Origin: a plasmid
Assembly (NCBI RefSeq): GCF_054482525.1
Contig: NZ_JBTHVG010000004.1
Length of the DNA: 64,000 bases
Reading direction: 5' to 3' (one strand)
Shown here piece after piece: positions 8,858-23,823 of this stretch. Each line of letters starts with the position of its first letter. Within the stretch, counting starts at the first letter, position 1. Under the pieces are notes generated by a model that worked only from the letters and a program-made list of their open reading frames with translations, was not told where the DNA came from and did not search any database. The position numbers and the translations under genes are program-made.

Positions 8858-11560
8858 GTGAATGCAGTCATTCCGAAAAAGAGAAGGGACGGCAAGTCTT
8901 CGTTCGAAGACCTGGTATCCTACGTCTCTGTCCGGGATGACATGACCGATGAGGAACTGGATTTATCTTCTTCTTCGCAGGCTGAACAACCGCACCGAAG
9001 CCGTTTCAGTCGCCTTGTTGATTATGCGACACGTCTTCGAAATGAGTCATTCGTGGCGCTGGTTGATGTCATGAAGGACGGCTGCGAATGGGTCAACTTT
9101 TATGGTGTCACCTGCTTTCATAACTGTACTTCTCTTGAAACTGCCGCTGCAGATATGGAGTACATTGCCCGGCAGGCACACTATGCAAAAGATGACACTG
9201 ATCCTGTTTTTCACTACATCCTTTCCTGGCAGTCACATGAAAGCCCGCGTCCGGAACAGATTTATGACAGTGTACGTCATACGCTGAAATCACTCGGCCT
9301 TGCCGACCATCAGTATGTCTCTGCCGTGCATACTGATACAGATAATCTGCACGTCCATGTGGCTGTTAACCGGGTACACCCTGAAACGGGTTATCTGAAC
9401 CGGTTATCATGGAGTCAGGAAAAACTCAGTCGTGCCTGCCGTGAGCTTGAACTGAAGCATGGTTTTGCTCCGGATAACGGTTGCTGGGTCCATGCGCCGG
9501 GAAATCGTATCGTTCGCAAAACTGCCGTTGAACGTGATCGCCAGAACGCTTGGACACGCGGAAAAAAACAAACTTTTCGCGAGTATGTTGCGCAGACAGC
9601 GGTCGCTGGTTTACGCAGTGAACCTGTACATGACTGGTTATCCCTGCATCGTCGTCTTGCTGAAGATGGTTTGTACCTGTCTCAGATGGACGGAAAATTT
9701 CTGGTGATGGATGGCTGGGATCGCAACAGGGAAGGTGTACAGCTTGACTCGTTTGGTCCCTCCTGGTGTGCAGAAAAACTCATGAAAAAAATGGGTGACT
9801 ACACGCCAGTGCCAAAAGACATTTTCAGCCAGGTGGAAGCACCAGGACGCTATAATCCGGACTTCATTGCAGCTGATGTTCGCCCGGAAAAAATCGCTGA
9901 AACAGAAAGTCTGCAGCAGTATGCCTGTCGTCATCTTGGAGAACGTCTGCCGGAAATGGCACGGGAAGGACGGCTGGAAAACTGCCAGGCTATTCACCGC
10001 ACACTGGCTGAAGCGGGATTATGGATGCGTGTTCAGCATGGTCACCTGGTTATCTGTGACGGTTATGATCATAACCAGACTCCCGTTCGTGCTGACAGCG
10101 TATGGTCACTGCTGACGCTCGACAATGTGAATCAACTCGATGGTGGCTGGCAGCCTGTACCAACAGATATTTTCCGCCAGGTTACGCCAACAGAACGCTT
10201 CCGTGGTCGTCGTATGGAGAGCTGTCCTGCGACCGATAAAGAATGGCACCGTATGCGTACAGGTACGGGGCCGCAGGGGGCTATCAAACGCGAACTGTTT
10301 TCTGACAAAGAAAGTCTGTGGGGATACAGCATCAGCCATTGTAGCCCTCAGATTGAAGAAATGATCACACAGGGTGAGTTTACCTGGCAGCGTTGTCATG
10401 AGTTGTTTGCACAACAGGGACTGATGCTACAGAAACAACATCACGGGCTTGTTGTCGTTGATGCCTTTAATCATGAGCAAACGCCGGTGAAGGCCAGCAG
10501 CATTCATCCTGATCTGACTCTGGGGCGTGCAGAGCCACAGGCCGGACCTTTTGTGAGTGCCCCAGCAGATTTGTTTGACAGGGTGCAACCTGAAAGTCGC
10601 TATAACCCGGAGCTGGCTGTCAGTGACAGGTACGGGGTCAGCAGTAAACGTGACCCAATGCTGCGCCGGCAGCGACGTGAAGCCAGAGCTGAGGCCCGTG
10701 CTGACCTGCGTGCCCGCTATCTGGCATGGCGTGAACAATGGCGTAAACCAGATCTGCGTTATGGGGAACGTTGTCGGGAAATTCATCAGGCATGCCGTCT
10801 GCGGAAGTCACACATTCGTGCGCAGTACGATGATCCGGCATTACGTAAGCTGCATTATCACATTGCAGAAGTTCAGCGAATGCAGGCATTGATCAGGCTG
10901 AAAGAAGACATCAGGGATGAGCGGCAGAAACTTATTGCTGACGGGAAGTGGTATCCACCCTCTTACCGTCAGTGGGTCGAAATTCAGGCTGCTCAGGGAG
11001 ACAGGGCTGCTGTATCGCAGCTGAGAGGCTGGGATTATCGCGATCGCCGTAAAGATAAGTCACGCACAACGACAACAGACCGCTGTGTCGTGCTTTGTGA
11101 ACCGGGCGGAACGCCGGTATACGGTAATACCGGTGATCTCGAGGCCCGTTTGCAGAAGAACGGGAGTGTTCGTTTCCGTGACCGTCGGACGGGAGAGTTT
11201 GTCTGTACGGATTATGGTGACAGGGTTGTTTTCCGTAATCACCATGACCGCAATGCGCTGGCAGATAAACTGGATTTGATTGCACCGGTATTATTCGGGC
11301 GTGATCCACGCATGGGTTTTGAACCAGAAGGAAACGACAAACAATTTAACCAGGTCTTTGCTGAAATGGTTGCCTGGCATAATGTGACAGGCCGTACCGG
11401 TCACGAAGACTACAGGATTACGCGACCGGACGTGGATCATCACCGTGAAGGAAGTGAACGCTACTACCGCGATTATATCGCGGCGAACAGCAACGATGAC
11501 GCATCACTGCCTCCGCCGGAGCAGGATAAACTCTGGGAACCGCCTTCTCCGATGAGATGA
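8858..11560 (+). CDS. nikB: NikB relaxase (MOBP family), about 900 aa
   Basis: The size and the N-terminal relaxase region match R64 NikB (HHY..., the HVHVAVNRVHPETG motif containing the His triad). It immediately follows nikA. Confidence 0.9.
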   Translation: MNAVIPKKRRDGKSSFEDLVSYVSVRDDMTDEELDLSSSSQAEQPHRSRFSRLVDYATRLRNESFVALVDVMKDGCEWVNFYGVTCFHNCTSLETAAADMEYIARQAHYAKDDTDPVFHYILSWQSHESPRPEQIYDSVRHTLKSLGLADHQYVSAVHTDTDNLHVHVAVNRVHPETGYLNRLSWSQEKLSRACRELELKHGFAPDNGCWVHAPGNRIVRKTAVERDRQNAWTRGKKQTFREYVAQTAVAGLRSEPVHDWLSLHRRLAEDGLYLSQMDGKFLVMDGWDRNREGVQLDSFGPSWCAEKLMKKMGDYTPVPKDIFSQVEAPGRYNPDFIAADVRPEKIAETESLQQYACRHLGERLPEMAREGRLENCQAIHRTLAEAGLWMRVQHGHLVICDGYDHNQTPVRADSVWSLLTLDNVNQLDGGWQPVPTDIFRQVTPTERFRGRRMESCPATDKEWHRMRTGTGPQGAIKRELFSDKESLWGYSISHCSPQIEEMITQGEFTWQRCHELFAQQGLMLQKQHHGLVVVDAFNHEQTPVKASSIHPDLTLGRAEPQAGPFVSAPADLFDRVQPESRYNPELAVSDRYGVSSKRDPMLRRQRREARAEARADLRARYLAWREQWRKPDLRYGERCREIHQACRLRKSHIRAQYDDPALRKLHYHIAEVQRMQALIRLKEDIRDERQKLIADGKWYPPSYRQWVEIQAAQGDRAAVSQLRGWDYRDRRKDKSRTTTTDRCVVLCEPGGTPVYGNTGDLEARLQKNGSVRFRDRRTGEFVCTDYGDRVVFRNHHDRNALADKLDLIAPVLFGRDPRMGFEPEGNDKQFNQVFAEMVAWHNVTGRTGHEDYRITRPDVDHHREGSERYYRDYIAANSNDDASLPPPEQDKLWEPPSPMR

Positions 11561-11682
11561 CAGATGAAGCTTTATTAGTTTCGTTATAGAATGAAAAAAT
11601 CACCAATATTAAATATGGGTGTGGTGGTAAAAATAAATATGTTAGGCAATGTTAAGTAACTCTATTGACGGAATCATGTTTT

Positions 11683-12501
11683 ATGAGCACTAATCTTGCT
11701 TTTCGTTATGCAAGTGTTGAAACTTTTTTTAAAATGATTGAAAACCAAGAATTATGGTTTACCGATCTTCGGAATATGAATGATCCGGAAGAATACTCGG
11801 CTGGCTATGAAATAGTCAAGAGAATAATAAATGAGGAATTTCCAGATTGCATTAGACTATTAGAAGAAGTATCACCTAATAAGATAGACGAAAATTTTAA
11901 GATATTAATTTGTTGTTTCTGTTCTGATGGAGATCGTTCCAACATGTGGAGCGAGTATGGTGATAATGGCAAAGGCGTTGCTATTGGTTATGATAAGAAT
12001 ATTATAACCCAAAATCATATTTTGGCTCGGTTTGAAGAACATTTTCAACCTATTAGTGGTAGAGTTGTCTTTCATCCTGTTATCTATTCAGAAGAACTGT
12101 TTCGAGAATATGTAAGAAACGCATTGCATGATTATATTAATCGCTCAAGTTTAAATATTAAATATGCACGTGGCATACTTCATGCACATCTTATCAGACT
12201 ATGTTCATTATATAAGAGAGAGAGTTTTGAATGTGAAAATGAGGTCCGAGGACTTATTGAAGTAGATGAACGTACATTCCCACCATACAAACTTGAAAAA
12301 CGTAGTACTGATTACGGAATTGCGTATTATACTAAGGTGAAATTTACCTGTAACAATATTACGGCAATTAGAGAGATTGTGTTGGGGCCTTTATTTGAAC
12401 AATCTGATGAACAGCTTCGGTCAAAATTAGATGATCTAGGGTTAAAGAATATAAAAATTAGACGTTCCATATGTACCTACAATGATGTGGTTAATCTGTA
12501 A
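11683..12501 (+). CDS. DUF2971-like protein (272 aa), AT-rich cargo gene between nikB and trbC
   Basis: About 30% GC against ~50% for the backbone. The N-terminal signature FRYASVETFFKMIENQELWFTDLRNMNDPEEY fits the DUF2971 pattern (YRY-S-E...L...ELWFS...FNDP-E). Its own terminator follows. Confidence 0.55.
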   Translation: MSTNLAFRYASVETFFKMIENQELWFTDLRNMNDPEEYSAGYEIVKRIINEEFPDCIRLLEEVSPNKIDENFKILICCFCSDGDRSNMWSEYGDNGKGVAIGYDKNIITQNHILARFEEHFQPISGRVVFHPVIYSEELFREYVRNALHDYINRSSLNIKYARGILHAHLIRLCSLYKRESFECENEVRGLIEVDERTFPPYKLEKRSTDYGIAYYTKVKFTCNNITAIREIVLGPLFEQSDEQLRSKLDDLGLKNIKIRRSICTYNDVVNL

Positions 12502-12504
12502 TCT

Positions 12505-12535
12505 GAATGCTGGTATCTAGTACCAGCATTTTTAA
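12505..12535 (+). terminator. rho-independent terminator after the DUF2971-like gene
   Basis: Perfect hairpin gctggtatctagtaccagc followed by ATTTTT. Confidence 0.55.
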
Positions 12536-12573
12536 ATAGGTTTTTTGCGGGAAGACCAAAGTATGGTCACAGT

Positions 12574-14865
12574 TCAGTACATTCCGTCCCAGTCCGGACG
12601 GTTGTTTTTTTTATGATGAAACCCGTTTACAGGACGCCCTGTCGGGTGGTTATTGTCCTGTGGAAGCGTTAACAGGTTTATACCGGCTCTTTCTGCTCTC
12701 ACTGATATCTGATTTTCCTCATTTGTTTCAGGTAGTTCTGGTCTGTTCAGTGTGATATAGCGAATTCGTCGCTCTTCCCGGGTGGTCGTTTTAAGCGTAT
12801 TCACCGCTGTTTCCCATAAGGCACTTTCACGTGCGTTGATATCCGTGTCGTACTCTTCCAGCATTGCCATAGCCGCCTGACGTCCTGCAATGCGTTGCTG
12901 GAATGTATCCACGATCGTGTGCGGCTCTGTGCGAATTTTTCGTCTTTTTCTGGAGGGTTTTGCAGTCAGGACGCCAATGATGGCACTGACATTTTCCGGT
13001 GACGGTATTCGACGTTGAGTAGTACGGGGAACAAGACGGCGGAGACGGTCCAGGCGTGGCGCATCCACGCTGATATACCTGTTTATAACAACGGGATCGC
13101 TGCTGCAGCTTTTCTCATCGTCAGGGATGAAGAATGATGCTGATGGTACGGTTTCTCCCCGGAAAATAGAAAAGAACTCGCCAGGATGAAGTTCAATCAA
13201 CTCCTGAACATTTATCTTGCTTTCCATCAGGATGCTGATTTGTGGGCTGTCAATCCATGATTCACCAAATATGCCGTCCTGACGCTGCAGGTTGTTCATC
13301 CTCGCCCTGGCTTCTTCACCGGCGGCGCTTTTCAGCGTTCTGGCCGTACTACCCTCGCTGACAATCCTGCCGGCAAATTTTGTCCCCGTGTTCTGCATCA
13401 GTGTTGCAGTATTCGTGGCTGTTGTCTGTCCTTCTATACGTTCCTGGTCCTGTGCCATCAAAATCAGAGCAAAATCCAGTGAACGCACCTGAGTGGCTTC
13501 CACAGCAATACGGTCCGTATAGTATGCCCCCACTTCATCAAGGAAACACAGATAAGGGAAACGCCCCTTATATTTTTTGACTTCCAGTGCATCGGAATCA
13601 GTTCCTTCGAGGCGGTAGCCCAAATCACGGGCGAGAATCATACTTTTCTGGGTGATAAACATTCGTCCAAGAGCAGACGTTGTATGCGCTGATGTATCCA
13701 GAGCGGGGATCATTACCATCAGAATCCTGTCGCTGTGAATGCTGTCACGGATATCGATATCACCGGAATCTTCAGCAAAAATATCCCCGAATGCTTCCGT
13801 GAATGTGCTGAAAGTTTCAGAAAACTGCCCGGAGAGATAAGCATGTTGTTTTCTGGGTTCTTCCGTCCAGGCTGATGGTGTCCTGACCAGCGACAGGTCG
13901 AAACCGGGAACGTCCTGAAGGTAGTTACGTAACGGTGCGATAGCTTCTTCCGGCCACTGATCATCGAGGCCACGACAGTAAAGTTTGGCCATCCCTTCGA
14001 GAGTCATATGTTCACGGAGCATCTGCAGCGACATTGTTTTGCCTTCGCGCACACACCAGAATTTAGTACCAAATACCAGTGCCTTATTCATGGCAATGGC
14101 CCGGGACTGCCACTCGCCCCCCTGGACGTTCTGGGGCAGCATTGACTGCATTGTCTCCGCTGTGAATGCCTCAGTGCTGTAACAGAAGGGATTCCAGGTA
14201 TTTGACTGAGGACGCGTTTTTTCACCACTCAGAATGATTTCACTGCGGGATTTTCCTCCGTTCATGAAGTTAATGACTTCCACATCGTCTTCACGTCCAA
14301 AGCGTCTGGCCAGATACCAGATCGTTCTTGCCGTATCATTCTGTGCCTTGCCATCGACAAGGGTGAATCCTCTTGCCCAGCAAAGTGGGTTAATCGCCCA
14401 GGCAAAGATGGTTTCCGTTTTACCGCCACCGGTGGTGGCGAAAAACATTATATGGCGGGTCAGATCGTCCATACTCAGCCATAACTCCCTGCCAATATCC
14501 CTGACGCGTTGATAACCAACATAGAATATGCCGCTGGCCGGTGATTCCAGAATGACCTCATACTGGAACAGGGTTGGCCAGAAGCTGAAAAGACTTCTTT
14601 TAATCATTCTGTCCTGTGACGGGTCAGCACATTCCAGCGTCATGGGCATACGAAGAGGGCAGCGCCATCGCTGCAGACTAAATACCAGCATTGTTATCAG
14701 TGTGAACAACAGACATGCCGGTAATGCAAGTGGCCAGATAAAACTGGCCACAAGACTTGCCACCAGGCAAAAGCCATAGATATTGAGACTCTGGAGTGCA
14801 TTCCAGACAGGATTTCCCCAGGCTGTACGGTGTAAAAGCTCGGGGTTAACGCGATGTTCACTCAT
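12574..14865 (-). CDS. trbC: TrbC (763 aa), IncI1 transfer protein
   Basis: The size is identical to R64 TrbC, with an N-terminal membrane segment, and it sits in the trbA-trbB-trbC order adjacent to nikB. Confidence 0.85.
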   Translation of the reverse strand: MSEHRVNPELLHRTAWGNPVWNALQSLNIYGFCLVASLVASFIWPLALPACLLFTLITMLVFSLQRWRCPLRMPMTLECADPSQDRMIKRSLFSFWPTLFQYEVILESPASGIFYVGYQRVRDIGRELWLSMDDLTRHIMFFATTGGGKTETIFAWAINPLCWARGFTLVDGKAQNDTARTIWYLARRFGREDDVEVINFMNGGKSRSEIILSGEKTRPQSNTWNPFCYSTEAFTAETMQSMLPQNVQGGEWQSRAIAMNKALVFGTKFWCVREGKTMSLQMLREHMTLEGMAKLYCRGLDDQWPEEAIAPLRNYLQDVPGFDLSLVRTPSAWTEEPRKQHAYLSGQFSETFSTFTEAFGDIFAEDSGDIDIRDSIHSDRILMVMIPALDTSAHTTSALGRMFITQKSMILARDLGYRLEGTDSDALEVKKYKGRFPYLCFLDEVGAYYTDRIAVEATQVRSLDFALILMAQDQERIEGQTTATNTATLMQNTGTKFAGRIVSEGSTARTLKSAAGEEARARMNNLQRQDGIFGESWIDSPQISILMESKINVQELIELHPGEFFSIFRGETVPSASFFIPDDEKSCSSDPVVINRYISVDAPRLDRLRRLVPRTTQRRIPSPENVSAIIGVLTAKPSRKRRKIRTEPHTIVDTFQQRIAGRQAAMAMLEEYDTDINARESALWETAVNTLKTTTREERRIRYITLNRPELPETNEENQISVRAERAGINLLTLPQDNNHPTGRPVNGFHHKKNNRPDWDGMY

Positions 14866-17248: not shown

Positions 17249-17419
17249 ATAAAAGGATTGTTGCAGATACGAAAGTCGTTAGAATAGCCGCGGACGCTTG
17301 AGGCTGTATGCCGAAAGCGTTTTGTGGATGGTATACAGCAGAAAGCCCCCTGGAGATTTTTTATCAATCAACCAGGGGCTCTACTGTAATGCCTAGACAA
17401 CATTATAGTAGCCTGATAA
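17249..17419 (+). repeat. 171-bp direct repeat R1, a copy of the pnd (hok/sok-type) leader containing a truncated pndC start
   Basis: About 95% identical to 18670..18840. It contains the gta-atg-cct...cattatagtagc pndC start, but the frame ends after 12 codons (MPRQHYSSLII*) and no pndA follows. Confidence 0.8.
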
Positions 17420-17461
17420 TTTAGATATGTGTACATCCTACCGGAAAAGATACTTTTCAGG

Positions 17462-18553
17462 TCATTTATCAATGGGTGTTATTACCACCGGTAGTTTGTT
17501 TACGTCTTCTAAATTAACTGGTACCGGAGGTAACCATATTAATCTAGGTTTACGCTCATGGGCTAGTTCTGGTTTCTTACTTCCTGTCCAGTATGTATGC
17601 CAGTGTCCCCGGCGTATATGAGGACGTTTGCTACCTATTGTTGTCCGCTCTTTCCCTGTGGGTTCTGCTTGGCGATATTGCCGTATGGCTTGCCCCATTC
17701 GAATACCAACGTCCCACTCCCGAATGTTTTGTGCTGGTAGTTCATGGTGAGTGTGAACATGCTTTTTGTGCTTTTCTGACCGTTTAAATTGATTTTTTTC
17801 TTTTATATCATTGATCTGTGAACAGATATAAAGCACCATTGATATCTGTGCGTTAAGAAGATTAAACTCCCTGTCTCTGAAATCTTTGAGCTTTTCGTTA
17901 ACTGTTACGACGACTTCACCATCGATACACTCCATCTTTCTGGAGTCAAGAAGTCCTTCACGAGAGTCCTTTATTCTGATGATATTATTGACGACGTCAA
18001 CATCCTTTTCTTTTAGCCCTGTAGTTCCTTGACTTTGTTTCAGATCATCAATAATGAAAAGCCGGATAATATTTCCATTATTGTCCAAAAATGGATAAAA
18101 GAAAAATCCATGTATCGGATAGGACGTAGGAAGTATAGTATGCAGATTTTCGGCTGAAACATAGATACTCCATGAAGGGAGTTCCTTGAGGATCTGTGCA
18201 GGAATGTTATCAACATAGGTGTTAGCCACATCACTGATGATGTCCTCGCTTAGGCGATAAATTTTCTTTGTATAGCGCCAGTATATAAAACACAAAATAC
18301 TGTGTGGTGACGATAATTCGTTTCCATGAAATAAAGATTCTAGTTTAGAAGCCAGTTCTTCATTTTTTTGTTGGCTCTGGAGACGACTCATTAGTATGCG
18401 TTCTTCATCTTTTCTGTCGATAAATAATAATGGATTGTCGCTGCGTTTTTTATTTCGGCATGCAAAGATTTGCTCTTCAAGCCCAGGGATTGTGTTGATG
18501 ACTTTTTTTATCTTTTTCAGGAAAATAGGTTGTTTTAACTGCGACATTTCCAT
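17462..18553 (-). CDS. hypothetical protein (363 aa), AT-rich cargo inserted between duplicated pnd leader copies
   Basis: About 33% GC, a clean ORF with no family I can name. The C-terminus carries RPHIRRGHWHTYWTG (an H-hydrophobic-H pattern) and PRLIWLPP. It is divergent from pndA. Confidence 0.6.
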   Translation of the reverse strand: MEMSQLKQPIFLKKIKKVINTIPGLEEQIFACRNKKRSDNPLLFIDRKDEERILMSRLQSQQKNEELASKLESLFHGNELSSPHSILCFIYWRYTKKIYRLSEDIISDVANTYVDNIPAQILKELPSWSIYVSAENLHTILPTSYPIHGFFFYPFLDNNGNIIRLFIIDDLKQSQGTTGLKEKDVDVVNNIIRIKDSREGLLDSRKMECIDGEVVVTVNEKLKDFRDREFNLLNAQISMVLYICSQINDIKEKNQFKRSEKHKKHVHTHHELPAQNIREWDVGIRMGQAIRQYRQAEPTGKERTTIGSKRPHIRRGHWHTYWTGSKKPELAHERKPRLIWLPPVPVNLEDVNKLPVVITPIDK

Positions 18554-18669
18554 CTCCTAAGGGGATTCTTTTATTAACTAAAATCAGCATAACATGCGTT
18601 GTTGTGAAGTAGAGAACCATGTATTGGGTTGGTTGTTAACTTCAAAAACAACGCTGAATCATTCAAATA

Positions 18670-18840
18670 ATAAAAGGATTGTTACAGATACGAAAGTCGT
18701 TAGAATAGCTGCGGGCGCTTGAGGCTGTATGCCGAAAGCGTTTTGTGGACGGTATACAGCAGAAAGCCCCTGGAGATTTTTTTATCAATCAACCAAGGGC
18801 TCTACTGTAATGCCTCAACAACATTATAGTAGCCCGATAA
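18670..18840 (+). repeat. 171-bp direct repeat R2 (the intact pnd leader)
   Basis: Partner of R1; continues into the intact pndC/pndA. Confidence 0.8.
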
Positions 18841-20180: not shown

Positions 20181-20571
20181 TGTTTTTTCCTTTTTGTGTT
20201 GAAAATAATTAATGCCAGAGCACAGCGAAAATAATGAATGCGCTGGCTGTGATAATTGCGATTTTCTCCCATATGATATTTTTCTCATGGGGGTTTCTAC
20301 GGAGATTATTTCTTCGCATTGAGATACCGGTATTCATGTTTTATCTTGGATTTTTGTTTTGTTGTCTGTCTGGCAGGCTGTTCTGCGCCCGTTTGTGACA
20401 AGGTTAGCTTATGGGGTTAAATGGTCACGGACATCATGCGGACGGTTCCCTGTCACATGCCATCTGGTTTTTTCATTCAAATTGAGAGATATTGCTAAGT
20501 TGAGTCGCTTGCGATAGTGGACTCCTGTTTGCAAGTGAGTGCCATTGTTTATTTCATGAAGAGGATTGATT

Positions 20572-20781
20572 ATGAGCATGCCTCCTGCGATAGCTAATAC
20601 TTTCTTGTTTGAAATGATGAAGAGTAAATCAAAAGACGTTACACTTGCTGCGATCTATGCATTAGGTGAAGGCCGGTGTCAGGCGGAGAACATTACTCGT
20701 GAATTACATAGATTGAGTCAAAGTGATGATATGGAAATAAAAATTGCTGCGATTAAAGCACTTGGTCGAATTTATCGGTAA
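20572..20781 (+). CDS. hypothetical small protein (69 aa) with a HEAT/PBS-lyase-like repeat
   Basis: AAIYALGEG...AAIKALGRI repeat pattern; modest ribosome-binding site. Confidence 0.3.
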   Translation: MSMPPAIANTFLFEMMKSKSKDVTLAAIYALGEGRCQAENITRELHRLSQSDDMEIKIAAIKALGRIYR

Positions 20782-20852
20782 CGGCATAAGTTATCTGTTG
20801 TAATGAACAAAAGCCGGCTCATTTGAACCGGCTGTTATGGAGGGAGCTTATC

Positions 20853-21515
20853 TTAAAATACTTCGGCTACAGGTATGCCTGCAATCTGCTCCCACTCCTT
20901 ACGCTTTTCCTGAATCAGGCGAGGAAAGTCGACAGGGTAATCATATCCTCGACTTGCCATCGCGTGCATGGTGTTTGATGCGGTTTCTGGATGAGTACAC
21001 CATGATGGAATAGGAACCATTGGCAGGTTGATGTATTTCGTATGAATTTCCAGTGTTTTGTCGTCTGTTACAGTACGAGTGAAATTATGAATGTCAAAAC
21101 CGATAACATCCATAATGTTGCCTGGATAAATACGGACATACAACATTGTGCCATTTTTAAGGTCAATACCGAAATAAGCTCCCTGAGTTAAAGATAATCC
21201 TTCATACCCCTTCTCTGGAGAGTAGAAGCCTGACTCTTTTATTGTTTGTACAACTTTTCTTATTTTTTCTCTCCTTGTTTTTGCACGTGAGTACATCCAT
21301 ATGCCTGGCGCAAGTAATAAGAACCAACTACCAAAAGTGACAACATAATCTTCGACCTTATTTCCGAAATAACGATCAGAACATAGCATTTCGGTAAAGC
21401 CTAATGCGCAGAACAGAAAAAAAGGTATTCCAAGAAAGAAATAAGCTTTTCTTAATACATAATAAAATAGCCACCAGGTTGGAAATCTGTCTGTTGTTTC
21501 TTTTTTAGCTTTCAT
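20853..21515 (-). CDS. excA: ExcA entry-exclusion protein (220 aa, inner membrane)
   Basis: Same length as R64 ExcA and located immediately downstream of traY. It has an N-terminal transmembrane region, and a terminator hairpin lies just past its stop. Confidence 0.8.
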
Positions 21516-21585
21516 ATAATGCCTCCCCTCGTACTATCTATTATTTTAATGCCGATGGGGAGGTTGTGCAATATTTATATTGATA

Positions 21586-23823
21586 TTATCCTTTTATTCC
21601 GTCCTTGTCGTCACTTCCTTTTGTATTATCTTTAAGACGATCTGTTTTCATTCCAGGAGTATGTCGGATATTGCGACTTCCTCCAATAAATATTTCTTTA
21701 ACAGAATTTGCCATGCTGCCAAGCGTGTTGGCTCCATCACGTCCCCCTAGGAAGTTAATAACATGATCAGGTAGGTAGGCCTGAAGGGCAAATATGGCAG
21801 CTACAGTGGTTGTACAAATTCTGGCGTATATCAGCAAGAAACCAGCAAGACTGAAAATACCGGTCAGCGAATTGAACTGTACGTTAACCAGGGCAGCGCC
21901 AAATAATGCATTCAGTATTGTGCCTACGGCGATGATGGCTACAGAAGCAAAGAAAAAACCAAAGACCATGATGGGCGGCCTTATCATACTATCAATTAAG
22001 TATATATAACCGTAGGCTGCCCGACTTCCTCTGTCTTCTGATGTCCCGAGATGTGTTGCAGCCCACAGCGGCCCGGCGGTACATCCTATTAATACGCTGA
22101 CTATCCAGTTCCCGATGCCTGTCATCCAGAAAATAAACGGAATGAATGGCAGGTAAATTGATAAGGAAAATCCAGCACAGAACATCAGGAACAAAAGAAA
22201 ATAAACAGGTGGTGCAAGTGCTTCAAACAGCGCGGTAAGCATCGAAGCGGCACCTGTTAGTGAGTTAAAGAATTTTACAAGAATTGAATCTTTGCCACCG
22301 GCAACGACAACTCTGGCCGTTGTATATATAGTCCAGATTCCTTCTGCACTTACCATTGTTATATCTCCGATATTTTTCATTTTTATCAGAGGATTAATTT
22401 GAGCACTGGTTGTGCCTGTGCCACTTGTTTCCGTTGCAATCCTGTTAGTGAGACTAACAAGGGGGCCCATAATTTCAGACAAGGCAGATTTCGGATCTTG
22501 TGCATTTGCCATGCGTTGTTCACTGGATGATACTACTGTGCCCAGCGGTGGCGTATAGGAGGAATTCTGCAGTTGCGTCCTATAGGCACTCATGACCGCA
22601 CTGAATAAGTCAGTATCACCAACTTCTCCCAGTGATGACATTGAAGTTACAGCTGGAGCTCTGTCAGCCAGCTCTGCCAGACGCTGGTTAGCAGTGGCAA
22701 AGGTCTGATACCATGCGCCAAGCGTTACCCACCCGTAGGTTGTGAGATAAGATTTAAGAGCCTCTTTTCTGGATTGCTCTCCGTTATCAGTGGGTAGCGA
22801 TTTTTGCACAGCACGTTCGTATTCGTCGGCTGCTTTCTGAATTCGTGTCTCGATATCCGGCAGTGTTCCGTTGCCAGAATTTCTTTTTTCCAGAAATGTT
22901 GTCACAAACTCACTGGCAGCGTTGTCCATGTCGCTAATCATATTATCCATGGCTGCACGTTGTGCTGAGATAACACCGCTGTATTCGTTTTTACTGAAGG
23001 GATTAAAGAATTTTCCAATCGTCGACTGATCTGTTGTTCCGTTCCCTTCTACTGACAGGCTGGCAGTACCACAGATACCGCTGCCATTGGATATTGTGAC
23101 AGTGTAATTACCACTGGCGGTTTTAGCTGATTCTGTCATCAGTGAAGTCGAGGATTTGGCCGTCTGATTAAAATCATTTAGCCCTGCGTTAACCGCATAC
23201 TTACACAGTTCCATTTCAAAAATGCCACGCGCTGCTGTTCGTGTGGATGCCTGAACTGGCTGTACAGTCATTGAATAACCATTTGCGATATTATCAGCGG
23301 CAACTTGCACCATCACATTGGCGGACCCAACCCCCATTATCGATGCGCCCCATAACATAATGAGCTGAGCGAGACTCCAGCCATTTCCGGTAGGAACGAT
23401 CATCAGAAAACCTGCGACGAAACTCAGTATGCCGACAATATCGCGCCCGACGCTGAATACCTGTCCCTGATGCCCCGAACGCACAACATGGCGGATACTA
23501 ATGAAGATACACCAGACGATAGCAAGTACGGCAATGATATTGTTGAACACCCAGAACATGCTTCCGATCAGGGTGGGGTCGCTGGTTGACAGTGGATTGG
23601 TGACCACATCACCGAATATCGTGACCAGCGCCTGGCGGGACAGATCGTCAGGATTGGTGGCGGCAGACACAATATCCTGATAGGTCACTGAAGCCATTGC
23701 CGGCAGTGAGGATATAGCAAGGCCTGCACAGAGTGCGCGAAGTAAAATTTTCACAGTAACTCCGGAATAGAATTGCGTATGGGCAAAGGCCACACAGGAT
23801 TTAATTAAGGGGGATGGCGACAT
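21586..23823 (-). CDS. traY: TraY (745 aa), polytopic inner-membrane transfer protein and exclusion target
   Basis: The size is identical to R64 TraY, with many transmembrane segments. Confidence 0.85.
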   Translation of the reverse strand: MSPSPLIKSCVAFAHTQFYSGVTVKILLRALCAGLAISSLPAMASVTYQDIVSAATNPDDLSRQALVTIFGDVVTNPLSTSDPTLIGSMFWVFNNIIAVLAIVWCIFISIRHVVRSGHQGQVFSVGRDIVGILSFVAGFLMIVPTGNGWSLAQLIMLWGASIMGVGSANVMVQVAADNIANGYSMTVQPVQASTRTAARGIFEMELCKYAVNAGLNDFNQTAKSSTSLMTESAKTASGNYTVTISNGSGICGTASLSVEGNGTTDQSTIGKFFNPFSKNEYSGVISAQRAAMDNMISDMDNAASEFVTTFLEKRNSGNGTLPDIETRIQKAADEYERAVQKSLPTDNGEQSRKEALKSYLTTYGWVTLGAWYQTFATANQRLAELADRAPAVTSMSSLGEVGDTDLFSAVMSAYRTQLQNSSYTPPLGTVVSSSEQRMANAQDPKSALSEIMGPLVSLTNRIATETSGTGTTSAQINPLIKMKNIGDITMVSAEGIWTIYTTARVVVAGGKDSILVKFFNSLTGAASMLTALFEALAPPVYFLLFLMFCAGFSLSIYLPFIPFIFWMTGIGNWIVSVLIGCTAGPLWAATHLGTSEDRGSRAAYGYIYLIDSMIRPPIMVFGFFFASVAIIAVGTILNALFGAALVNVQFNSLTGIFSLAGFLLIYARICTTTVAAIFALQAYLPDHVINFLGGRDGANTLGSMANSVKEIFIGGSRNIRHTPGMKTDRLKDNTKGSDDKDGIKG

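Follow-up and report, generated by a model that had tools for sequence, protein, structure and literature searches.

What does a single AT-rich gene do between two convergent transfer genes of a conjugative IncI1 plasmid? The question is raised by the plasmid contig NZ_JBTHVG010000004.1 (assembly GCF_054482525.1), of which a stretch of 64,000 nucleotides, referred to as the window, was analysed; all positions given are positions in the window. Between nikB on the plus strand and trbC on the minus strand, the window carries an accessory segment with one gene of the Pfam family DUF2971. The initial annotation, made from the sequence without database searches, had presented this gene as a compact single-gene cargo and a candidate defence factor. 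With moderate confidence, on the strength of sequence comparisons and a predicted structure, we propose that its product is a stand-alone abortive-infection enzyme like Aristaios, a phage-resistance protein encoded on a lactococcal plasmid, with a core of the NAD+-dependent ADP-ribosyltransferase (ART) type that would remain silent until infection.

The gene, its family and its conserved residues

The segment comprises 1021 bp at 11551-12571 with a GC content of 0.333, compared with 0.49 for the window. The lowest-GC kilobase of the whole 64-kb window starts at 11551 (0.331, against a mean of 0.491 and a standard deviation of 0.048). In windows of 300 nt, the GC content was 0.31-0.34 within the segment and approximately 0.50 in both flanks, in agreement with the compositional contrast that had first drawn attention to the locus. 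The open reading frame (ORF) of 272 amino acids was found at 11683-12501 on the plus strand, with the sequence originally quoted, and its ATG start is consistent with where homologous proteins begin. The product matches RefSeq WP_000106196.1 at every residue, and the annotation that it has received, also in pACN001-F, is solely that of a DUF2971 domain-containing protein. The segment, the gene and the codons of the candidate motifs discussed below are as follows.

11551-12571, no strand assigned: accessory segment with one gene, delimited by a three-way comparison of occupied, empty and other-cargo junctions and by GC content
11683-12501, plus strand: DUF2971 gene, ATG start, 272 codons and a stop, from the ORF list
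11704-11709, plus strand: codons of R8-Y9 in beta-1, candidate NAD-binding motif I, from family alignments, the structural model and PMC12522546
11947-11958, plus strand: codons of W89-S-E-Y92, carrying the candidate motif II tyrosine, from the family alignment and PMC12522546
12235-12249, plus strand: codons of E185-N-E187-V-R189, candidate ExE catalytic motif III at the start of beta-6, from the alignment, the model and PMC12522546

The window protein is a member of Pfam DUF2971. The PF11185 model was matched with E = 5.7e-10 and 40.8 bits (cutoff 22) over residues 88-189, which correspond to model positions 1-88 of 89. The family had initially been assigned from an N-terminal signature; the assignment holds, but the signature lies outside the Pfam model, although the quoted motif is nonetheless conserved in the family (Y9, N33, D34, E37). 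All of the aligned homologues matched the DUF2971 model (119/119), and at E <= 1e-3 the family numbered 3765 representatives of 50% clusters. Comparison with the PADLOC models, proposed in the initial annotation as a check, returned only PDC-S31, matched by 5/5 models at E-values from 1.2e-11, the best, to 7.7e-5 (20-43 bits) and mostly with partial coverage. A PHROG of function not known also matched the protein, and NCBIfam held no family for it. Among the relatives, 29/119 weakly matched Pfam AbiGi (PF10899; best E = 3.4e-5) and 2/119 matched Tox-ART-HYD1.

Residue conservation was scored over an alignment of 250 relatives. The invariant or nearly invariant positions were Y9, N33, D34, E37, W89, Y92, G98, Y135, K178, E185, E187 and R189. 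Y92, E187 and R189 were present in 250/250 relatives, W89 and E185 in 249/250 and Y9 in 248/250. Position 8 is His in 230/250 relatives and Arg in the clade of the window protein only, a clade consisting of the IncI1 alleles and relatives down to approximately 39% identity. Two further positions were recorded separately. Tyr266, conserved in 220/250 family members, is Cys in three IncI1 alleles (L002, L006 and L007), and position 184, Glu in 177/250 relatives, is Cys or Ser across all IncI1 alleles.

Predicted fold and proposed mechanism

The AlphaFold2 model of the window protein had a pLDDT of 90.9 and a pTM of 0.88. In the model, two long helices at 137-176 come before E185-x-E187, which lies at the start of a predicted strand (187-195). 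The motif pattern of an ART was present, with R8, Y9, Y92 and E185-x-E187 each lying at a predicted strand or strand edge. Foldseek gave no significant match in the PDB, and its matches in BFVD were all weak and concerned phage proteins that are uncharacterised; a profile search of PDB sequences returned nothing relevant and no match to DarT. A 2025 survey predicted an ART fold for DUF2971, related to DarT, AbiGi and Tox-ART-HYD1; in its description, the motif II Tyr is strictly conserved, motif III has the form ExE, the motif I His is conserved only poorly and the helical inserts are large (PMC12522546). The window protein fits this description, with Y92, an ExE motif at the start of a strand and the helices at 137-176. 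Its placement among the ARTs is suggested with moderate strength, independent evidence at the sequence level coming from the weak matches of relatives to AbiGi and Tox-ART-HYD1, and the earlier statement that DUF2971 proteins have no assigned mechanism is outdated by the predicted fold (PMC12522546).

In the mechanism that we propose, the protein would belong to the NAD+-dependent ADP-ribosyltransferases, within the DUF2971 family related to DarT and AbiGi. Its NAD-binding catalytic core would be formed by the conserved N-terminal part together with the ExE strand (R8/Y9, Y92, E185/E187), and the fast-evolving helical inserts and loops would probably act as an infection sensor or target selector. 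Because no antitoxin is present, the enzyme is proposed to be inactive in uninfected cells. Infection would lead to the ADP-ribosylation of a nucleic acid or of a component of the transcription machinery, phage gene expression would be shut down at the cost of the infected cell, and the plasmid's host population would be protected.

The suggestion of a defence role was strengthened by the antiphage activity of Aristaios (PMC11381338) and by the location of the closest relatives outside IncI, which span 42-49% identity, in defence islands. An E. coli relative (GCA_028850805.1; 49% identity) lies in an integrase-bounded island beside mutS, directly 3' of Hachiman HamA and a helicase. A relative on a metagenomic contig (45% identity) has the genes of a SIR2_2 protein of 1298 aa and of an ATPase (AAA_13/SMC_N) beside it, and a relative from Pandoraea (43% identity) shares an integrase island with RT_UG17, a reverse transcriptase of the defence type (E = 9e-135).

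Two further observations were made at these loci. In the E. coli assembly GCA_028850805.1 (L003 5387-5995), just 6 bp separate the DUF2971 gene from the end of an ORF of 202 aa that matches no Pfam family; an ORF of 202 aa is likewise present on the contig of the 45%-identical relative, and the IncI1 copy is without such a gene. In Shewanella, the distance between the DUF2971 gene described below and tnsA is unusually short for a gene outside the end of a Tn7-type element.

The absence of a partner gene bears on whether the protein might instead be a DarTG-type plasmid-addiction toxin with an unrecognised antitoxin. Such a reading would accord with DarT toxins as the best structural neighbours and with the addiction loci that IncI1 backbones have nearby (Hok/Gef, DqlB), but we judge it very improbable. 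No partner or antitoxin ORF was found in the segment, which contains no second ORF of >=60 aa and just spurious small or antisense ORFs; its sole upstream mini-ORF (22 codons) is frameshifted in alleles L002 and L007. The neighbours of the segment are nikB and trbC only, with no DarG macrodomain gene or conserved partner ORF adjoining. An Rfam scan of 11300-12800 found no RNA family, and PADLOC gave no DarT match. Furthermore, approximately 96% of IncI1 plasmids are without the segment and already hold other addiction loci nearby. The description of the locus as a compact single-gene cargo on a conjugative plasmid is accurate, as neither a partner ORF nor an RNA was found.

Junctions, distribution and allele variation

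The sequence common to occupied and empty sites stops at 11550 and restarts at 12572. Between these points, 1021 bp stand in place of 41 bp of the empty site (AGGTTAAAAAAAAGGCCGCGCCAGAATCCGGCGCGGCCACT), and the 41 bp replaced consist of the last codon and stop of nikB plus the trbC terminator. The segment alters the C-terminus of NikB from ...SPG* to ...SPMR*. The location between convergent nikB and trbC had been correctly recognised at the outset; the locus is, however, a replacement and not the clean intergenic insertion first described. No terminal direct or inverted repeats and no target-site duplication were found at 11551 and 12571. The segment contains no recombinase, its only gene being that of the DUF2971 protein, and it is neither a recognisable transposable element nor an integron cassette. 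The flanking genes and the terminator-like structures are listed below.

8858-11560, plus strand: nikB relaxase gene, its last codon rewritten by the segment
12574-14865, minus strand: trbC, gene for an IcmO/DotL-like coupling protein, convergent with the DUF2971 gene
12505-12536, plus strand: hairpin and T run, probable intrinsic terminator of the DUF2971 gene, from RNA folding
12584-12611, plus strand: terminator-like hairpin CCGTCC..GGACGG followed by a T-rich run, in the 3' end of trbC, from terminator scan, folding and alignment

The hairpin directly 3' of the DUF2971 stop codon (12505-12531) has 10 Watson-Crick and 2 G-U pairs and is followed by a T run. Its folding energy is -17.6 kcal/mol (z = -4.8 relative to shuffled sequences), which makes it stronger than the 8-bp stem initially reported, and its sequence is the same in all sampled alleles. 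It was not called by a consensus terminator scan. In the empty site, folding of the minus strand gave an 11-bp GC hairpin followed by U8 (compare L001 1040-1110). This replaced hairpin is identified as the intrinsic terminator of trbC because the U8 lies on the trbC strand only; for the same reason, a bidirectional terminator was considered and rejected. In the occupied site, the minus strand of 12490-12580 folds into two hairpins, neither with a U tract, and the hairpin at 12584-12611 is found in occupied and empty plasmids alike. The interval from the nikB stop to the start codon of the DUF2971 gene folds into no stable structure (z = -0.19). Given this and the loss of the trbC terminator, read-through from nikB into the DUF2971 gene is possible, and trbABC transcripts may run antisense through it.

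When the stretch from nikB to trbC was queried by megablast, 1604 plasmid records were recovered, nearly all of them conjugative IncI types whose hosts are Escherichia and Salmonella. Only 54/1604 records include the central part of the query, and the others span 1121 bp, compared with 2101 bp in the window. The segment alone as query recovered 55 plasmid records, with nikB adjoining in every case. It was present in 52/5426 complete E. coli genomes, on plasmids only and never on the chromosome. All copies of the segment sit on conjugative plasmids. With 55/1604 plasmid records and 52/5426 E. coli genomes, the gene is, as had been supposed, accessory and not universal IncI1 backbone. A phage origin was not detectable in a collection of phage genomes, which gave just two weak matches, one of them to a Streptococcus satellite.

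A different cargo occupies the same gap in plasmid pF862-2 (NZ_OY757099.1, L011 3461-9072). It measures 5.6 kb with a GC content of 0.40 and encodes a hypothetical 190-aa protein, a peptidase-domain ABC transporter, an HlyD adaptor, a CPBP intramembrane protease and a small ORF, which together look like a locus for bacteriocin or microcin export and immunity. Because pF862-2 holds different cargo there, the nikB/trbC gap is a multi-state cargo slot. We take the segment to be accessory cargo that was acquired horizontally and occupies this variable part of the IncI1 backbone. The pF862-2 cargo retains a hairpin and a T-rich run on the trbC strand.

The position of the slot brings in the reading that the gene serves conjugation or plasmid conflict, by fertility inhibition, exclusion or modification of transferred single-stranded DNA, against rival plasmids or recipients. 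In one variant, the type IVB secretion system of IncI1, which is Dot/Icm-like, might serve to deliver the protein. The gene lies between those for the relaxase and the IcmO/DotL-like coupling protein, with no terminator-like structure after nikB, and with the trbC terminator lost its expression may be coupled to transfer-gene transcription. Competition is served by other variable AT-rich IncI1 cargo (finQ and the bacteriocin-export-like locus in the pF862-2 slot), the structural neighbour DarT acts on single-stranded DNA, and one DUF2971 protein, from Legionella, has been predicted to be an effector (PMC12522546). We nevertheless regard a conflict factor as unlikely, since no signal or evidence of translocation was found, predicted effectors make up only 18% of DUF2971 proteins (PMC12522546), the sole tested member of the family is antiphage (PMC11381338), and the chromosomal relatives lie in defence islands without an association with conjugation genes.

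A broader combination of these elements was also formulated. In this joint reading, the protein would be a stand-alone, antitoxin-free, DarT-like nucleic-acid ART of an unusual R-Y-ExE subtype. The fast-diversifying helical insert that immediately precedes the ExE strand, where the ARTT target-recognition loop is positioned, would act as a built-in sensor and target selector. Its expression would be tied to transfer-gene transcription by nikB read-through and trbABC antisense transcription, and it would be deployed specifically at times when cells bearing pili meet I-pilus-specific single-stranded DNA phages or rival incoming DNA. Taken as a whole, we consider this combination improbable.

Other AT-rich stretches of the window were noted alongside the segment. 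A second patch (17249-18840) contains a 363-aa ORF at 17462-18553 on the minus strand with no Pfam or PADLOC family, annotated as finQ (fertility inhibition) in matching IncI1 plasmids. At least 80% of the finQ query stretch was covered in 391/1954 matching records, and the finQ-bearing middle was absent from most. Direct repeats of 171 bp (17249-17419 and 18670-18840; 92% identical) lie on either side of the ORF, beside a Hok/Gef locus, and suggest its gain or loss through recombination between the repeats. A third stretch with 1-kb GC below 0.40 extends over approximately 20451-22051 and probably lies in traY, judging by collinearity with pACN001-F.

To return to the DUF2971 gene, 10 distinct DNA alleles were sampled, with DNA identities of 93.4-100% and protein identities of 87-100%. 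The 272-codon frame is intact in 10/10 of them despite up to 13% amino-acid divergence. Pairwise dN/dS between the alleles was 0.65-1.4, rising to 2-5 in the closest pairs, compared with 0.03-0.14 for nikB and 0.05-0.41 for trbC in the same plasmids; the contrast in nonsynonymous to synonymous changes between the DUF2971 gene and nikB was significant (Fisher p = 9e-8). The main clade held 5 synonymous and 36 nonsynonymous variable sites (omega approximately 1.8), and the deep split between clades 13 synonymous and 30 nonsynonymous sites (omega approximately 0.6). Four extra alleles added no new variable sites. The variation is concentrated in one part of the gene.

11995-12498, plus strand: fast-evolving part of the DUF2971 gene, codons 105-272, from the comparison of IncI1 alleles

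Residues varied at 51/168 positions in codons 105-272, compared with 2/104 in codons 1-104. Purifying selection was considered as the cause of the quiet N-terminal third and dropped. Synonymous sites there are equally quiet (1/58 variable in the 5' third, compared with 17/108 in the rest), so mosaicism or recent common descent accounts for the pattern no less than selection does. Within the variable region, the replaced residues tend to lie outside the columns that are conserved in the family (p = 2.7e-5), with 2/20 highly conserved columns varying, and they are depleted in beta-strands (16%, compared with 35% of positions; p = 0.02). The most variable elements are the loop 196-204, with changes at 67% of its positions, and the two helical inserts, 105-128 and 137-176, with changes at 38% of positions in each. 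All invariant motif residues are kept across the IncI1 alleles. The allele pattern is, on these comparisons, not that of neutral decay, and a conserved core surrounded by fast-changing parts is consistent with a working protein on whose surface diversifying or relaxed selection acts.

Several results weigh against the proposal of an Aristaios-like abortive-infection enzyme. Relaxed constraint on non-core positions would fit the allele data as well as an arms race would, the omega of the main clade was not significantly greater than 1 (p = 0.13) and so does not establish positive selection there, and part of the variation pattern is attributable to recombination mosaicism. The segment is infrequent, at approximately 3% of IncI1 plasmids. 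A few broken copies occur, with a frameshift in L097 and an IS1 insertion in H174, and the copy in H124 is 1 bp shorter and without an annotated CDS. A scan for sigma-70 consensus promoters 5' of the ATG on the plus strand found none. The identity of the protein to most DUF2971 proteins is 20-28%, the AbiGi model gave no match at E <= 1, and the DarT models in the PADLOC and Pfam scans gave no match. A relative from Shewanella sp. KJ2020 (43% identity; L013 9959-13354) lies 20 bp upstream of a Tn7-like tnsA, followed by tnsB, and thus adjoins Tn7-like genes, not defence genes. Finally, the antiphage and transcription-block phenotypes have been demonstrated for Aristaios only.

Some of these results would also suit a functionless passenger under relaxed constraint that persists solely by hitch-hiking between two essential transfer genes. 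The low prevalence, the frameshifted or IS-interrupted copies and the missing consensus promoter all point in this direction, as do an overall dN/dS near 1 and the variation among alleles at the family-conserved positions 184 and 266 (Y266C). A full frame in every distinct allele, the avoidance of conserved columns and beta-strands by the substitutions, the retention of every invariant motif residue and a terminator hairpin identical in all alleles argue against a passenger, and we find it quite unlikely.

Should the product prove to be an enzyme active in abortive infection, Enterobacteria would gain their first characterised defence of the DUF2971/Aristaios type. IncI1 is a major plasmid family in the spread of resistance genes, including those of extended-spectrum beta-lactamases, through E. 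coli and Salmonella, and a plasmid-borne defence alters the host range of resistance-plasmid persistence and the effects of phage therapy or predation on carriers. The locus is tractable, with one 819-bp gene, natural isogenic empty-site plasmids and at least 10 alleles that differ mostly outside the catalytic core. Together, these features could reveal the trigger and target specificity of an uncharacterised family of several thousand proteins. We regard the gene as a cleanly delimited, experimentally tractable candidate defence gene that will not surprise specialists.

Comparison with known systems

No paper mentioning DUF2971 together with IncI1 was found, and none on cargo at the nikB/trbC site was among the papers listed by a search aimed at it. 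The comparison is with named systems from elsewhere. PDC-S31, the only PADLOC model set matched, is a computational single-gene candidate on which no publications were found, and the matches to it are low-scoring and mostly partial.

The DarT toxins (PDB 7yk3, 7omv, 8baq) are without the large helical inserts of the window protein, have no detectable sequence similarity to it and are not linked to it by Foldseek. DarTG systems have a DarG macrodomain partner, whereas none lies beside the window gene, which places the locus outside DarTG. The lactococcal AbiG resembles the proposed mechanism in being a plasmid-borne abortive-infection system that affects phage transcription; the window protein lacks an AbiGi match, there is no AbiGii partner gene, and the locus is not an AbiG system. 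Legionella lpg1268 belongs to the DUF2971 Pfam family, whose members are predicted modified H-Y-E ARTs with the conserved Tyr and ExE (PMC12522546). It has been proposed as a secreted effector of an intracellular pathogen, and its kinship with the window protein was traced to the level of the family.

Aristaios is a protein of 316 aa encoded on the lactococcal plasmid pUCCL641, with DUF2971 as its sole domain, and provides single-gene phage resistance of the abortive-infection type (PMC11381338). It interferes with phage transcription and abolishes the production of late proteins (PMC13064643, PMC12967558). Judged by its published description, Aristaios differs from the window protein in length (316 compared with 272 aa) and in host phylum, and the clade of the window protein has Arg, not His, in motif I. 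No lactococcal records were among the listed matches when the plasmid collection was searched by tblastn with two queries. By architecture and carriage, the window gene resembles Aristaios, as a lone gene on a plasmid whose product has DUF2971 as its only domain.

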